Shown piece after piece: positions 13,888 through 63,301 of a stretch of DNA of 64,000 nucleotides. The notes under the pieces are model-generated. The model did no database searches. It was not told where the DNA came from and worked only from the letters and a program-made list of their open reading frames with translations. Source of the stretch: Vicugna vicugna (taxonomy: Eukaryota); NCBI GenBank assembly GCA_013265495.1, contig MU057584.1, forward strand, positions 784,608 through 848,607, read 5' to 3'. A program made the translations under genes and the position numbers. How positions within the stretch are numbered: the first letter of the stretch is position 1; the number at the start of each line of letters is the position of its first letter.

Positions 13888-14175
13888 TATACATATGCAC
13901 ACATATATACTATGTAGAGATTGATGTATACATGAGCACATAGATTGATACATACACAAGCACATATATATAGAGATATATACATGAGCATGTATACATA
14001 GAGGTTGATATATACATGAGCACATATATACATAGATTGATATATACGTGAGCACATATAGAGCACATATAGACATAGATTGATACATATGTGAGCACAT
14101 ATAGAGAGACTGAGGTATACATGAGCATATATATACATAGGGATTGATACATACACAAGCACATATGTACATAAA
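13888..14175. repeat. Degenerate AT-rich minisatellite (about 26-32 bp unit ATACATGAGCACATATA..ATAGATTG)
   Basis: Recurring GAGCACATAT and TTGATA(C/T)AT blocks. Confidence 0.8.
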
Positions 14176-21354: not shown

Positions 21355-38276
<16,922 letters not shown>

Positions 38277-42000: not shown

Positions 42001-45000
42001 CTAGACCTTATTCCTCTGAGGCTTCACCCTGGGGAAGAGCTGAGGGAAGACAGGATCTTCAGACACCAGGAGCTCCCCTCACTCCACCCTCAAATATAAC
42101 ACAATCACCAAATCCACCCCCAAACACCTGGAGTGTCTCCATCCTTCCATCCCTTCCTAGTAGACTCACTCAGCATCTCCCAAACCACATGGGAGTCCCC
42201 AAGTCCCCTGTCACCTCCATGCACCAGATGGAGCCTTGACGAAATGGAATATTCTGAGTTTCCCAAATGGCCAGAAAAAAAAAACCCGCTGGCCACCCCC
42301 TACCACCATGGCTGTCTAATCAGGACCCACTTCCACCTATTCCCCCAATTGAAGGAATCTTCTCCCCCAGGAATATAACGGGATCTTAATGGTCTCCTCC
42401 CCTAACTTAATAGAATCTCCCTCATTTCTACTATAATTTTATTAATGGATTCTTCCTCCCTCTGCCCAATGTGGTGTAACAGAAGCGCCCTCACCATCAC
42501 ACCTATGATATACAGTTCTTTAACTGCCTCATCTCTAAAATGGGATTCTTCATGGCTCCCCTTGGCTAAAGTACATTCTTCTTTACCTCCCCATGAATAT
42601 AATTCGGGATATTAAAAATATTTGATTGAGCATGAACCCATCAAATAACCAGTAAGACAGTACTGGTGAGTACCCCCACGAAGTACCACCAGTAAGGGCC
42701 CTCCCTTATTTTAGTGGACTCTTCCTCAGCTCCCCAAGACCAATAATGGACTCTTCTGACCTCCCCTCCTCCCCAATATAATGGACTGTCCCTCTTGCCC
42801 CTCTTTTTCCTGTAGGATCACCCTTTTCCTCAAACAGCAAGCAGGAGGCACGGTATCTCTTCTGGGCTCACCCCGAAGTAGTTACGGGGCACGTAGCCCT
42901 CCTGGCCGTGCAGCGTGGCCCACCACCAGTCGGTCTCCTCCAGTCCGTCCCTCCGAAGCACGGTGACCGACTCGCCCTCGCGGAAGGACAGCTCGTCCCC
43001 GAACTCGGCGCTGTAGTCCCACAGGGCGTACACCACCCCGTTGTGCATCAGCCCCATGCTCTGCTCCACGTCTGAAACATCAGACAGCAGGGATCGTAAG
43101 CGCGCAGTCCAAGGGGTCCACAAACACTCAAGGATAAGGGGACAGACACAGACCGTGGGATTTGGCAGGCGCCACCTGGGGACATGAGTCATTTGAAAAG
43201 TTGTGTACCCCTGTCTGGAGAGGGGAGCCTGAGCTGGAGTCAGCTGCAGGTACTAGCAGTCTCTAAAACACTGGGGTAAATCAAGATGGGCCACCAACCC
43301 CCGAGGCAGGGTCCGTGATCACACTGATCCCCCCTCCATAAAAGATAAATTTTCCAGAGAAGATGTAATAATTTTCCAGATAGTATAGCCCACCTGAACC
43401 TCCCCTACCCCCTTAAGTGGTTAAATTCCTATCAAGGATTTAGCCTCCTTTCCAGATGATAGTCCACCACGCTCCCCCTCTTTAGTGGTTCATTTCGCGT
43501 GTTCTCCTCTCCCCTCCCTTGCCACGCCTCCCCCCGTGCGCTGTCCTATCTCTGCTTCACGCTCACAGAACTCCCCCACGTCCCTGGCAGGTAGGACAGT
43601 AAAATCTTCATATGTCAGTCTCCACCTCACTGTGACAAAGGTGATCACAGTCTCCCTCCCCAAAGCTCACTGTCCTACTCCTCTTCAGTGGACCTTTTAC
43701 TTCCCGCCCCAGTGGTCCAGTCCGGATCTGCCACTGCCCACGGATAAGGCAGGTGTCACAGACCCATGGCTGCCACCCACTTTCTGCTGTAGCCCAGCAG
43801 ACTGTCCCGTAGTCCCTCTAGGGTCACCCCTCAAATACACTGCCCCACCTCCAGGTCCTACAGCCTGCCTTGGTCCAGCTCTGTGAAGCTCCGAACTCCA
43901 CCTTATGATACAGTTGGCGCCTCCAGGTGTGCAGCACAGACCCTAGGCACGCCCCCATGGTACAGTCTACCTAGTTCCTCCCATCACCTGTTTAGGTGAT
44001 GTGCCCCACCTCCTGGAGATATGTGACACAGCCTCATGTCTCCCTTCAAGTGGAAGTGTCCCCAAGCCTCTCCCCTAAAACCATGGCCTGCTCACCTGTC
44101 ACCTGTATGGTACTATACCTCCCACAGGTAGCACAGCCCACATGCCCAGCCCTATGCCAGGTGGATGGTATAGTTGGAACATCCAACTCCCCACCCCCGC
44201 CGATGCGAAACAGATAAAGCAGCCCAATCTCCACAAACCACTCCTCCCACAGGTGTCCAGCTTGCGTGGCACAGTCCTTGTACCCCTCTCCCTCGAAGGT
44301 GGCACCGTCTGCTCCCTCCTACACACACCCTTCTTGCACCTGCCAGTCCCCAACCCCTGCAGGTGGTCCATTCCGCTGGCCCTTCCTCTGTGATGCTGCC
44401 ACTTGGTTGATACAGCCCCTAGAGCTTCTCTCTAGGGAGCTGCAGTCTGCAGCTTCCCCACCCACCCCCAACCCAACACCTGCCAGCTGGACGGCCCAGT
44501 CCCAGCGCCCCCCTCCCCCAGGGGTGGCCCAGCCCGCCCACCGGGGCACTGCAGCTCTGCCTCGCACCTGCCAGGTAAGTGGCGCAGTCTGCGTAACCCT
44601 CGCGGTAAGGGTCACACTTCTCGATGGCGGTGGCGCCGTCACTGAGCGTGGTGGCGAAGATTGCCGCGCCGTGCTGCACCAGCGCCGTGCAGATGGCCGT
44701 GTCGTTGCACGACGCCGCGCAGTGCAACGGTGTCCTGGGCGTGGGAGGCATGCGTGAGAAGCCGCGAGGTCGCCCGCAAGGATCCCGACCCGCAGCGCCG
44801 TCCCCGCCCCACGTCGGCCACGCCGTCAGGGCTCACCAGCCGTGGCTATCGGGCGAGTTGACGTTGGCACCCGCCGCGATGAGGAAGTCCACGATGGGGT
44901 AGTTGGCGCCGCAGATGGCGTTGTGCAGGGCAGTGATGCCCTCCTCGTTGGGCTGGCTCGGGTCGTTCATCTGCCAGGGAGCGGGAGGCTCAGTCCGGCG

Positions 45001-48000
45001 GCTGCCACCCGGCCTCCCGCTCCTCCACCCCAGCAGCCCTGCTCTCTAGCAACACTCACCTCCTTCACCGCCTGCTGCACCACGTCCAGCTCCCCGGTCA
45101 GCGCGGCGTCCAGCAGCAGCACAAGTGGGTTGAGGCGCGCGCGGCGGACCTTGCGCGGGGAGCCGGCCTTCCGCAGCACCGAACGCATCTCCTGGGAACA
45201 GGGCCAGGGGCTTCAGTGGCTTGAGAGGATCGCTAACACATACATTACTCAGAGTGGGAACCAGAAGCTCAGGGACTTGACGGCAACAGCCCCAGGTCAT
45301 CCAACTAGACAGGGGTGTGATTGAAACTGAGGAATGTGCAGAGCCTGAGTCCAGAGGACCATGGGAAGGAGGGCCCCTCAGTTCTACAGCCTCTGGTTCC
45401 CTACAACAGTTAGAGAATCTAATGAATCGCAGGCCCTGAGACCAGAGAGGAAGCTGGGAGGCAATCAGATTGATGATTGTGGGAGCCAGATATTTCTTTT
45501 ACATATATATATATATATAAAAAAAAAAGCTATGAAGCACACCTGACAAGGTGTTACCAAGTGTTAATTCTGGATGTTTGGAATTAGAATGTTTATCGTA
45601 TTATTCCTTGTGGTTTCTTATTTTCGATTTTCAAGTATCCTCCTACAAAATCCATTTATTCTGAGCATGTAGCATTTGTGATTCTGGTCCTTGATGTCAA
45701 TGATTTCAAGATTCTGGAATTTGGAGATCCCAGGAGCCACTGGTTTCAAAATTCTCTGATACTCAGTTATTACAAGTTTCTAATTATGTTGTGAGTCCAG
45801 AAATGCTAAGTTGTGCCATTTCAAATTGCTGAAGACCCAAGGCACTGCATTCCCAAGATTCTGAGTGAGAACTTTAATATTTTATGGTTAGAATTTCATT
45901 CCAAAAGATTGCAAGGAAATACTCAAAATGTTAATCGTGGTTCTCTCTAGTGCTGTCACTTTGGCCTCATTCTTCTACTTGTTATTTATTTCCTCCAGCT
46001 TTCTGTGATGTTTGTTTATTCCTTTCTAGTGGAAAATATTCATTTGAAATAAAATTCTGTATTATGTTAGTGCACTAATTGGTGATTTTATGGTTCAAAT
46101 GATGAGCCTAATTTCTCATTTGGGTGACTTCAAGAATTAGTAATAACCAGGGTTTGTGTTACTAACTTTTCAATTTAAGATCCTGTTCAAACCTTCAGTG
46201 TTCAAGGATTCTGAAATTCCACAGTTCTGAGATTGTGATGCCAGGATTTAATTCTTGAATTCTGTGAATTTTCAAGTTTCCCTGTGATCAGGGATTCTAC
46301 AGTGAGGCCGCTTGACCATTTCAAGATGTTTTCATTCTCCTATTCTTGATTTCAAGATCCTGAGCCTCAATATTTCTTGGCTCCACTCTCAGAAGGGCCC
46401 AGGAATAGGCATTTTGGGGTCCACCTGGCCCCCACTTCTCATTCCTCTCCCTCCGTCTACCCACACTGAGCAATGAGGATTGTTCCATTTGACTACACCC
46501 CACACCCCCAGCCAAGATACCGAAATCAGACCAAGATCAGCAAGAGAGCATCCCCTGGTCAAATGATAACAATAATAGTAAGCAGTTGAGTGCCAGATGC
46601 TATTCTAGGCACTATATTATGTATTTAATCCTTATAGCAACCCTATGGTTAGTCTCATCCCCATTTTACAGATGAGGAAACCAAGACCCAGAGGGGCTAA
46701 GTGTCTTGTCCAGGGTTGTACCCCTGATTAGCTCAGCAGCTGATGCACTTAACCATGACACCCAAAGCCTCAGAGACCAGAGATTTGTTTTTGAAAATGT
46801 GAATGGAAGAAGCTCTGACTAGAGTCAGAAGATATCAACAGACTTGAACTGAGAGGTTATTTTGAGTCAGGGCTGGTGGGCCATTTCTAGCCACAGCGCA
46901 GGCTTGCTGAGGTGTAAAAGGAAAGAATGGATCCCCAGAGAAGGCGGACATGAGAGACTATGCCAACTAGGGAGAGAAATGGTGACTGACTTGATTCAGG
47001 CAGGTTTTTCAGATCCCAGAATAAACCCACTGTTGTGCCAAGATGAAGTCATTTCCAGGTTGTAAGACTCTAAGATTCCTAAAGGGGGATGTGGACAGGT
47101 TACTGGAGAGGAACAAAGAAAGTCTCAGTGTGGTCAAGACTTTTGGATGCCCCTCCATGCATGTTCTCCCTTTCCTCTGTACACGAGTACACTTAGATTA
47201 AAAACTACATTTCCCAGCCTCCCTTGCAGCTGGGTTCCTGGCCAGTGGGATGCAGTAGATTGTTTGCTGTGATATGTGCAATTTCCAGATTCTGTTCCAA
47301 AAGGGAAGGGATGCCTCCATATAATAACTAATATACCCCCAGTTCCTCCTGTATTACTTACCATGCTCTGTGGCTGCTCTGGTGGGCTGCTCTGGAGCGG
47401 GGCTGGGGGAGGTATGGGAGCTGGAGGGGCAGGAGCAGGGGGCCCTGCCCTGGCCTCAGATCCCTCAGTGATGGGAGACAGCTCCGGCTCAGGCCCCCCA
47501 GGCCCCCCATGACGATGGAAGAGGCGGCTGATGATCTGCTGGTACTGCTTTTTGTGGGTGGGGGGCAGGGCTACAGCAGGGCTCTGCTCCATGGAGCCCC
47601 TGCGTTTGAGGGGCCGTGGAATCTCAGCCAGCACCCGTGCCACCTCCTCCAGCTCAGGCACTGACTGTGCCTCGGGTGGCAGTGCTGGCTGCAGCCGTGT
47701 GGGACTAAGGGGCCGAGTGACAGCCCCTTCGTCTGAATCACCAGCCTCCAGCACTGGTGTCAGCAGCCCCTCCAGTTCTGGTTCAGGCTCTAACTCAGGG
47801 GGAGGTTTGGGGAGGCCTGGAAGGAACAAGAGCACAATCAGAGGAGGGGACTCTGGGAGACCCTCAAGACTTCCTCCCCACAACTTCCAGGACCTGCAAC
47901 CAGCACTTGATTTGCTGTGTGACCTCAGGGTAGCTCCTTGCTCTCTCTGGGCTATACTTCCCTGGGTTGTGAATAACAGACAATTATGACATCCCCCATT

Positions 48001-51000
48001 TATTAAGTACTTGGCATGCACCTTGTACTTGACATGCTTGTCTTATTGAATTCTCACCACTAACTTGGGAGGTAGATATATGGCCATTATCTCATCATCA
48101 TAGAAGGGGAAACTGAGTCTCCGAGAGGGCAAGTCAGTTACCTAAAGCCACACAGCTGGGATTTGAATTCAGTTCTATCGGACTCCAGAATCTCTGCTCC
48201 TACTGTCATGATAAGCTTGACTTTGTAAGAGTCTAAGAATTTCCTCTCCTAACAACTCAGGCAGAAAACTGCTAGGGCTAGAATCCTGGAGACTGATGAT
48301 CTCATGCCTCTCTAGTAGAGCTTCTAAAGTGGGTAGAAATAATAGTGATCACTCTTTATACATTATTTCATTGAATGCTCATCATAATCTATGGGGTAAA
48401 TATAATTAATATCTCTTCACAGATGAGAAAATGTAAGCTCAGATAGGTTAACTAATTTTATCCTGAGTCACCAGCAGGTCAATGGTGGAGAGGTGCTCAA
48501 AACCTACTCTGCTTAAATCCAAGCCCTGAGCTGGTTTCACACCAAAAAACAAACAAACAAACAAACAAACAAACAAAAAACCCTACTAATATGATAGCTA
48601 TTGAGGGTTTACTATACATCAGGCTGTATTTTAGGACTTTATATGGATTAAATAATCTAGTACCATATCCCAGAATAAAGATAGGTTCTATCATTATTCA
48701 CATTTTACATTCAAGGAAATTGAGGTCCAGAGAGGTTAAGTGACTTACTAAAGGTCACACAGCATAGAGCCAGGCAGTCTGACCCCAGGGTCCATGGTTA
48801 ACCACTGTGCTATCCCTAGCTCCTGAGCAAATTCCCAAGCCCATCTGGCCTCACTGTCTGCAGGGACAATGTCTGGGAATAGGTGTTTGGCCGAGATGGC
48901 TCCCCTAGTTGGTCTGGCCCCCAGCCATTTGTCCTCCCCTCACCCAGCCCTCTGGGGCTCCCATTGCTGACTCACCTTCACTCATAGGGGGCCAAGTCTG
49001 TTGAGGGGGTTGGGGGACTGGGGCAGGGGCTTGAGGCTGGGGTTGAGGCTGGGGTTGTAGTTGTGGCTGGGGCTGTGGGGGCGGCTGCGGCTGTGGTTGG
49101 GGCTGGGCCTGTGGAGGAGCCTGGGGCTGGGGAGGCAGCTTAGGCGGGGGAGCTCGGGAGAAGATGGGGGAGCCAGGGAGCATGGCCCTGCTGGCCCCGT
49201 GCTCCCAGAAGGCATTCTGCAGTTTGAATATTATTCCATATGGGGGAGCCAGGGAGCATGGCCCTGCTGGCCCCGTGCTCCCAGAAGGCATTCTGCAGTT
49301 TGAATATCATGCTGAGGGGGATGGGGGGCTGGCGGGGGGCCCTGCGGGGCTGGGGGCTGGAAGGAGGCATAGGGATGCGGCTGACAGGTTGCCAGTTTCG
49401 AGGCAAAGTCCCTGATGGTGCCGCGGAGCCCAGAGATCGGCGATAGCTGCCTACATCGGAACGCCTGTCGTTGGCCAGAGGAGAGACCTTGTAATTGCGG
49501 GGCAAAGTAGCGCTGGTGAGGTTGTCCTGGGGGAGAAAGAGGGAAGGAAGGAAGGAAGAAGGGGCTCAGGTGGGAAAAAGTTAGGAGTAACAGAATGAAT
49601 GCTAAGGGAGGGGAGGAAGGGAGGTGGGGGGTAAGGGCAAAAAGTGATGAGGGAGAGGAGGAGGAGAAGGGAGACAGAGAGGGAAAGAAAGAGGGTCAGG
49701 AAGGGGGACAGAAATCTAGGATAAAGGAAGAGCGAGGGGAAGGGTGCAGAAACTGCCGGCGCAGCCAGGAGGGGGAGACTAGACCTGACCCCATCCTTAC
49801 CCACCACCCCCTCCCCAAGCTTCTCTGGCCCCTCACCTTGCCGGTGGCCCCCAGTCCACCATCCAGGCTGCTCTCTCTCCAGGGTAACAGCTGCAGGCCC
49901 GGTGAAGAGGGTCGCGCAAAGACGTCCAGGCCTGCGAGAAGGGAATCATTAGGGTCTGGGGGACTCCTCTCCGGCTCCCCGATTCCTCCGGTCTCTCATT
50001 ACTCACGTTCATAGCTTGCTGTCTGTGAGGACTTCTTCTCGTACGCCACGTCCAGGTCAGACTCGTTCCAGGCTTTGGGGGGCCGCCGGCGCAGCGTAAG
50101 GTCATCTAGGGAGAGGTCGCCAATGAGGATGAGGGGGCAGGGAGACGCTAGCCCGCGCTCCTCCCACTCCTCGACACCCCACCTCCGCTCCCCGCCCTCA
50201 AGTTCGGCCCCCGGGCTCACCTTGCGCGCGCAGAGGCGGGGCGAAGGCGCTGCCGCCCGCGCCCAGTAGAGAGCTCCCAAAGGCCGCCGGCGCGTCGTAG
50301 GCTGCGGTCGGGGGGCGTGGCGAGGGCCCGCGCTCTGGGAAGAAGACCTGGGGCCCCTCCGCCAAGGGGCTGCCGCGCGGGGAGCCGGCACGACCCAAGA
50401 AGTCAAAGGGCGTGGGGGGACCCTGCTGGCGGAGCGGGCCCGAGCCCGGCCGCGGGGAAGGCGCACGGCCGAGGGGGCTGCCTGCGCCATCGAAGGCGCG
50501 GGGCCGGGGCGAGGGCGCGCGGTCCAGGCTGCCGTAGGTGTCCGGCTGCAGGTAGAGCGGGGTGCGCGGGGACGACGGCCGGCCCTTAGCGGACAGCGAG
50601 CTGTAGGGGAGCAGAGCTGGGGCGCTCTCGGAGCGTCCGAACGGGGTGTCTGCGCTGTCGGTGGTCGCCTTCCGGGGGGACCCGCGGTTGCCTAAGGGCT
50701 CGGGGACCGGGCTGGAACTGTACCGGGACAGCTGTGGGAAGGTCAGGACATTGAGGGGTCAAAGTAGACGTTGGTAGAGGGTTGGTAGGAGGTCGATAGA
50801 TGTGACGGAAAATCAATCCTGGGGGTTGGAGCTGGAGATTCTGGCAGAGAGCCCACGAGAAAGGTGTTGGGGAGACAGCCCTGAAATCAGGGCTGAGGTT
50901 AGCACATAGAGTGCCTTTGCGCCGCTTAGAATAAAGTCCCCTTTCCTTTCGAGAGTCCTGACCGATGTCCACTTCCACAGGTTCCCTCTATCAAGTGCCC

Positions 51001-51397
51001 TTTAATAGCCCACAACCTGCACAGCCCTATGGGACAGGCTTGCCTGGACTCCATGCGGAAATATACTGATTTTGAGGGCCAGGGTGGGGACGAGAGCGAG
51101 CAGTCTCACCCGAGCGGGGGCTCCGGCCTGCGAGCCAGGAGGCGTTGGTGAGTCTGACCACAGCGATTCCAGCTGCTTGGTCAGTTCGTCCACCTTAGCC
51201 GCCGCCGTGTCCAGCTCCATCTGCTTCAGGTCCATGTGCTTCATGGCCAGAGCTGGGCGGGCAGGAGTGGAGGTAAGGACCCAGACCTCTGGGCAGGGTC
51301 CAGCCTCTCCCCTCTGAGGGCCCGCCCCCTACCGCAGCTCACACTGAAAATTCAGATCCAGAAGGTCCCGCGAGCTCTGGAAAGCCTCGCTGTCCAT
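42001..51397 (-). CDS. PPP1R13L: iASPP / RelA-associated inhibitor; frame disrupted in exon 7 as assembled
   Basis: Exons 51397-51343, 51252-51110, 50731-50221, 50105-50007, 49931-49837, 49526-48976, 47816-47362, 45191-45060, 44970-44837, 44734-44568, 43071-42872, 42039-42001. Starts [29 protein letters not shown]; Pro/Gln-rich middle, ankyrin repeats ([22 protein letters not shown]) and SH3 ([17 protein letters not shown]...YVPRNYFG). Removing the 76-nt insert gives 2505 nt (834 aa). Confidence 0.95.
49164..49307. repeat. PPP1R13L: Perfect 68-bp direct duplication with 8-bp spacer in PPP1R13L exon 7
   Basis: 49164-49231 is identical to 49240-49307; spacer TATTCCAT at 49232-49239. Confidence 0.95.
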
Positions 51398-62775: not shown

Positions 62776-63156
62776 CCAAACAATGGTTTACATTCTTAAA
62801 AAGAACATTCATTTTTAAAATTTGGTGTTCTTCCCTGGGTTTTGCCGCTTTCCTCTCACTGCAGCAGGGATTATTATTGTTACTATTATTAATCATTTTG
62901 TTCAGGACACCAAGTTAGCACCCTATATCCGGTCACACCGTTTGCTTTCACTTTTGCTTCCTACAGTACAATCAGGACCTCCTTCCACATTCGCAGACGG
63001 AGCTCAACCCCATTTACCTAAGGGCTCCAAAATATTCCATAGTTTGGATATAAACACATGGGTAGTATTTCCCTTGTAGGGGCCTAGCTGCACTCTGTCC
63101 AAAGCTCTTTATGTTCAGAAGCTTCTGGGCTCCCTTGAGAGATCCTATAAGGCAGT

Positions 63157-63301
63157 TCTTTTCCTTTTCCCTTTTCCTTTTTCCTTTTTCCTTTTTCCTT
63201 TCCTTTCCTTTCCCTTTTTTTTCTTTTCTTTTCTTTTCTTTTCTTTTCTTTTCTTTTCTTTTCTTTTCTTTTCTTTTCTTTTCTTTTCTTTTCTTTCTTT
63301 C
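63157..63301. repeat. (TTTTCC)n/(TTTTC)n polypyrimidine microsatellite
   Basis: About 145 bp pure C/T tract. Confidence 0.92.

Follow-up and report, generated by a model that had tools for sequence, protein, structure and literature searches.

Gene content and conservation of the PPP1R13L locus

The window, by which we mean the whole 64,000-nucleotide stretch of Vicugna vicugna DNA that was analysed, carries on its reverse strand the twelve coding exons of PPP1R13L, the gene for iASPP, also called RelA-associated inhibitor (Table 1). Exon bounds were set by exact peptide matches to the alpaca protein P0001 and are accurate to a few nucleotides at split codons. ERCC2 (XPD helicase) adjoins PPP1R13L downstream on the same strand (21358-37945, reverse), which is presumably the human gene order as well. 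Of the 760 residues of a deer XPD, 759 are covered by ERCC2 here and 747 are identical, and nothing points to a frameshift. The 90%-identity cluster of P0001 also contains ruminant ERCC2/XPD proteins (P0121, P0123, P0128 and others), and their presence there suggests that some member of the cluster is a read-through fusion model of both neighbours.

The translation of the sixth coding exon matched 161 proteins at E <= 0.001. Among the 120 of these that were listed, the named mammalian ones are RelA-associated inhibitor or PPP1R13L, and the top match among those listed is the Vicugna pacos relA-associated inhibitor (98%). Pfam places the ankyrin repeats (Ank) at 637-728 and SH3 at 771-820 of P0001 (834 aa), and residues 461-834 are encoded identically to alpaca by the exons of the window. 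C-terminal ankyrin repeats followed by SH3, after a proline-rich region, are the arrangement that marks an iASPP orthologue. Protein matches, exon mapping and Pfam domains all agree with the name PPP1R13L (iASPP) that had been given to the gene by an earlier, sequence-only reading of this DNA.

When read in the native frame, 832 of the 834 residues are those of P0001 (exact blocks 1-18, 20-362 and 369-834, together with the tblastn alignment), with residue 19, which spans a splice site, lying outside the exact blocks. The alpaca state is present at all five residues that distinguish alpaca from wild Bactrian camel, which places the genome in, or very near, the South American camelids. The exon site occurs once in the genome (2.03 Gb, 12,405 contigs), and this single match rules out a second gene copy or a processed copy. 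An old pseudogene is also ruled out, since every other exon encodes exactly the alpaca protein; the sequence-only reading had argued against old pseudogenisation from the intact downstream exons.

Table 1 Features of the PPP1R13L locus, in coordinates of the window
Feature	Position	Strand	Basis or remark
PPP1R13L (iASPP, RelA-associated inhibitor) coding region	42004..51397	-	exact-match mapping of alpaca protein P0001, tblastn, best database hit
PPP1R13L coding exons 1-6	51397-51344, 51250-51110, 50731-50222, 50106-50005, 49929-49837, 49526-48976	-	
PPP1R13L coding exons 7-12	47814-47362, 45191-45060, 44970-44836, 44733-44569, 43072-42872, 42039-42004	-	
Sixth coding exon of PPP1R13L	48976..49526	-	AG before 49526, GT after 48976; translation
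S363R base	49341..49341	-	codon AGG (Arg) for alpaca Ser363; C run on + strand longer (ggggggcCctg)
R368P base	49327..49327	-	codon CCC (Pro) for alpaca Arg368; G run on + strand longer (ggatggggGgctgg)
Upstream repeat copy (gene sense)	49240..49307	-	encodes native 23-residue stretch; repeat finding and TRF
8-nt filler	49232..49239	-	TATTCCAT on + strand, ATGGAATA in gene sense
Downstream repeat copy (gene sense)	49164..49231	-	out-of-frame reading, 22 residues; translation
Premature TAA stop from shifted frame	49140..49142	-	128 codons into the exon; translation

A perfect tandem repeat in the sixth coding exon

As assembled, the sixth coding exon is 551 nt long. The neighbouring exons require a length of 3n+1, so 475 nt are expected, which is the length left when 76 nt are subtracted; the exon bounds and the phase of the neighbours agree with the sequence-only reading on both figures. 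That reading had called the exon number 7, a label that would need an untranslated first exon to be included in the numbering, the exon being the sixth coding one in the window. The exon contains a direct repeat whose copies are identical on the + strand at 68 of 68 positions, separated by the filler, and the first base beyond either end already breaks the match; the perfect 68-bp repeat reported earlier at these positions thus stands as described. Tandem Repeats Finder (TRF) gives a period of 76, 1.9 copies and 100% matches. Direct-repeat search also yields an alternative, equally valid register of 71 nt with one mismatch, equivalent to an exact 71-nt duplication with a 5-nt insertion three bases off the junction. 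Within 352 kb of scaffold C452, to which the window belongs, this is the sole perfect non-microsatellite direct repeat of at least 36 bp with a spacing of at most 400 bp; the repeat is therefore neither a product of chance nor a general trait of the surrounding sequence. This count, like those of assembly gaps given below, is drawn from 352 kb of one scaffold and is not a genome-wide rate. The duplicated structure is present in the assembled sequence, and its origin is what we infer below. The same exon holds a degenerate 6/18/36-nt repeat at 49014-49132 (TRF), which codes its Pro-Gln-rich tract and whose protein is that of alpaca.

Translation follows the native frame up to ...AMLPGSPI (I397 in alpaca numbering), after which 32 foreign residues lead to the stop. 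The break falls at residue 397 of 834 and the stop comes before the ankyrin and SH3 domains, so that translation and Pfam coordinates both support what had been proposed for the frameshift, its stop and the loss of the two domains. Recessive PPP1R13L loss-of-function alleles are characterized by a reading frame that shifts or stops early, ahead of the ankyrin-SH3 module, and the genomic sequence here has this feature. As the stop falls in coding exon 6 of 12, the transcript should, by the general rule, be subject to nonsense-mediated decay.

Between 49155 and 49320 there is no GT dinucleotide on the sense strand, as had been noted before for the duplicated unit. With no GT and no AG/GY register, a clean intron inside the repeat is ruled out. 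Within the exon, the frame could be restored only by hypothetical GC-AG excisions 61-73 nt long; taking out 73 nt (49289-49217), for example, gives the native protein plus one Asn.

Two substitutions beside the repeat

Across the gene, the sole amino-acid differences from P0001 are S363R and R368P, which sit 17-34 bp from the repeat and outside the duplicated segment. Both are C/G transversions, and both extend a homopolymer. Position 363 is variable among homologues. At column 368, arginine occurs in 54, lysine in 31 and proline in none of the 85 homologues that have the neighbouring motif; these 85 were scored from 120 examined, the other 35 being without the motif by the pattern used. An APOBEC-type cluster was considered and ruled out, as both altered bases are preceded by G and not by T. 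The repeat, S363R and R368P fall within some 180 bp of a gene that is otherwise perfect, and three anomalies so close together point to a single local cause.

Composition of the filler

The first 5 nt of the filler reproduce, in inverted form, the GAATA of the left flank, and its last 4 nt likewise reproduce the ATGG with which the right flank begins, so that all 8 filler nucleotides are accounted for by inversion of the 4-5 nt next to them on each side. In a full enumeration of the 65536 possible 8-mers, 10 to 107 do equally well, for a flank reach of 5 to 10 nt; by this test, which was post hoc, the filler is non-random. Inserted bases templated from sequence near the junction, a mark of polymerase-theta joining or template switching, are thus found here. 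No microhomology was seen at the breakpoints, and no base is shared at the unit ends. Polymerase theta is described as producing inverted templated filler in real mutations by snap-back synthesis (PMC4912351); templated extension by this enzyme and a connection with tandem duplications have likewise been published (PMC4912351, PMC7368036, PMC8654963). By our own reasoning, inverted tips could also stem from fold-back read artefacts at contig tips.

Assembly quality around the repeat

The 352 kb of scaffold contain two runs of N, one of 76 bases and one of 48. The 76-N gap (C452:688806-688881, locus L002) lies outside the window, about 145 kb from the repeat, and the 18 nt just to its left are the same as the 18 nt just to its right, an exact direct repeat (CCCCCGCCCCTGCTTCCG). 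This gap represents two overlapping contig ends left unmerged, and the exact 18-nt overlap at its flanks establishes that unmerged ends exist in the assembly, in a very small sample (one of two N runs in 352 kb). The 48-N gap (C452:738402-738449) has no comparable flank overlap. There are no N bases in the 64-kb window, and the two copies of the repeat are separated by 8 defined bases.

The repeat and both gaps lie in sequence of 62-68% GC, compared with a mean of 51%; 11-22% of 200-bp windows are that GC-rich. Gap-free stretches in the scaffold run from 50 to over 208 kb, and these, together with the clean coding sequence of nearby ERCC2, indicate that the assembly is not generally sloppy. 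Assembly defects have been described as common in GC-rich exons (PMC9516821), and the literature knows a class of false 'homotype' duplications at contig boundaries that scaffolding places in tandem (PMC8081667).

Searches for an independent occurrence

Independent copies of the junction, the novel tail or the variant residues were looked for in several collections. For the novel tail (residues 85-128 of the frameshifted product), a search among proteins of 70-224 aa returned 3 candidates, none of which scored. The 95-aa native part had 4 matches among proteins of 52-167 aa, the best at 89% and none camelid-like. R363 and P368 occurred in no protein among the matches listed, the best of which reached 98% for longer proteins and 89% for short ones. 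Metagenome contigs gave 0 matches for the junction and 0 for the native upstream stretch. The site has a single match in the genome, which therefore holds no second haplotype contig for comparison. Literature on PPP1R13L in alpaca included nothing bearing on the repeat, and the work on goat skin that was found is irrelevant to it.

For the stretch 49120-49380, 24 public sequencing runs were listed, 20 of them with part of the stretch. The best five runs contained 0.50 of 22 sampled words, with none higher; this was word sampling only and was given no weight. A native allele free of the repeat and of both substitutions is expected to contain about 0.64 of all words, and the shares in the runs fit native alleles, a fit that we did not count as evidence.

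Known consequences of PPP1R13L loss

A homozygous PPP1R13L stop is reported to cause fatal infant dilated cardiomyopathy with signs in skin, teeth and hair, the loss being recessive and affected children dying before age 3, and heterozygous relatives were healthy, as were the 12 carriers identified when 200 people were screened (PMC5331242). The same account describes wa3 mice with wavy hair and fatal cardiomyopathy, and its references include the paper on the Poll Hereford cattle syndrome (Simpson et al. 2009). The biology on which the sequence-only reading relied, cardiomyopathy with woolly or wavy hair on PPP1R13L loss, agrees with this source (PMC5331242), where the loss is recessive in mouse and human and brings wavy hair and a fatal cardiomyopathy; the cattle part enters through its reference list. 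Given this recessive inheritance and the early death of affected individuals, an adult animal that was sequenced could carry a real allele only in heterozygous form. By analogy with the known models and their juvenile lethality, a homozygous null of relevance to fibre is implausible.

Origin of the repeat

The best explanation of these observations is that the extra 76 nt are probably a local assembly or consensus error and no part of the animal's genome. Two contig ends, or local consensus pieces, would meet inside the GC-rich exon and overlap by 68-71 nt, with a few wrong bases at their tips. Because of these bases the pieces would have been abutted and not merged, and the outcome would be a spurious tandem duplication whose copies are separated by a few junk bases; S363R and R368P would then reflect poor consensus near a contig end, and in the animal itself the exon would be 475 nt, as normal, and the iASPP protein intact. 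In favour of an error count the clustering of the two substitutions beside the repeat, the unmerged 18-nt overlap, which places this class of artefact in the same scaffold, and the GC-rich setting shared by the repeat and both gaps. The failure to find an independent copy of the tail or of the variant residues in the collections searched counts in the same direction, as does the published description of homotype false duplications (PMC8081667). So does the recessive inheritance with death of affected children before 3, as reported in PMC5331242, since a true allele would then have to be a rare carrier state. Identical tandem copies and an unmerged overlap elsewhere, both marks of false duplication, were found; an N or join mark between the copies was not. 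The lack of an N at the exon counts against an assembly error, as both other joins kept theirs and a gap-closing step must be assumed. The inverted flank copies that make up the filler, the long gap-free stretches with the clean ERCC2, and the perfection of a repeat that is alone of its kind in 352 kb count against it too. The choice offered by the sequence-only reading, a recent null allele or an assembly join artefact, keeps both its options, with the weight now shifted towards the artefact by the S363R/R368P cluster and the 18-nt overlap.

The alternative to which we give some credence, as a possible though less probable origin, is a real and recent loss-of-function allele of PPP1R13L, heterozygous in a healthy carrier and included by chance in an assembly that represents a single haplotype. 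One event of error-prone repair, which could have been polymerase-theta end joining or replicative template switching, would have made the duplication, the inverted templated filler and both substitutions, and the expected product is a degraded transcript or a 429-aa protein without ankyrin and SH3. A filler copied in inverted form from both flanks speaks for such an event, in agreement with the published snap-back synthesis, templated extension and tandem-duplication link of polymerase theta (PMC4912351, PMC7368036, PMC8654963), and so do the perfect copies, the long contigs and the absence of N at the site. All other exons are intact, as a young allele predicts, the stop falls upstream of Ank and SH3, and human carriers of PPP1R13L nulls are reported to be healthy (PMC5331242). 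Its prior is nevertheless low, since exonic duplications of 76 bp are rare in a gene whose loss is recessive and lethal, while defects of GC-rich exons are described as common (PMC9516821). The substitutions, being outside the duplicated segment and homopolymer-extending, also resemble consensus error, the site is single-copy in the genome with no second haplotype contig, and the junction, the tail and the variant residues occurred in no other sequence searched. A mutation of somatic or cell-line origin in the DNA that was sequenced, present in the reads and absent from the germ line, would share this junction evidence; nothing specific favours it, the event must have been clonal to reach the consensus, and we regard it as very unlikely. 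Hardly credible at all is a real duplication that is homozygous in the animal or fixed in the species, with the gene lost or rescued by unusual splicing within the exon. Frame-restoring GC-AG excisions can be drawn for it, but the repeat is without a GT donor, nothing supports the drawn micro-introns of 61-73 nt, homozygous loss is reported as lethal in the young of human and mouse (PMC5331242), and all other exons are perfectly conserved with alpaca.

Relation to known systems

The structure can be compared with three described systems. As in the homotype false duplications reported by the Vertebrate Genomes Project (Rhie et al. 2021, PMC8081667), a locus stands twice in tandem at a possible join in GC-rich sequence, and the scaffold of the window has an unmerged 18-nt overlap at an N gap. 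Unlike them, the window is without a gap, the spacer consists of 8 defined bases that are inverted flank copies, and the 68-71 nt involved here are shorter than the read-length overlaps described in PMC8081667. The internal tandem duplications ascribed to polymerase theta or template switching are alike in that a perfect short duplication is joined by inserted bases inverted from the immediate flanks; they differ in that the junction here is without visible microhomology and is known from one sequence. With the recessive PPP1R13L nulls (waved-3 and woe2 in mouse, p.Y747X and others in human cardio-cutaneous syndrome, and Poll Hereford cardiomyopathy with woolly haircoat), the assembled exon shares a frameshift or early stop by which the C-terminal ankyrin-SH3 module is removed. 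It is unlike them in being a candidate from one assembly with no phenotype, heterozygous if real, and broken further upstream. The Poll Hereford cattle allele is said to be a short frameshifting duplication too.

If the repeat is an assembly error, as we think probable, the practical point is small: the assembly mis-states one PPP1R13L exon, and genes predicted from it will falsely look truncated or yield a 'low quality' protein. A real repeat would mean that the animal carries an allele for a recessive lethal disease of heart and hair coat in a fibre animal, and a simple PCR test in breeding stock would be worthwhile. Camelid breeding populations would then hold an allele for recessive cardiomyopathy and abnormal fleece of the same kind as those of Poll Hereford, waved-3 and cardio-cutaneous syndrome. 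The junction, moreover, would offer a clean case of a polymerase-theta-type scar from the germ line, and a known class of alleles would gain a member, with no new kind of biology.

Other repeats in the window

Outside PPP1R13L and ERCC2, an AT-rich compound minisatellite lies at 13911-14166 (periods 24 to 105, 65-93% matches), and a (TTTTC)n microsatellite of about 21 copies occupies 63156-63300.
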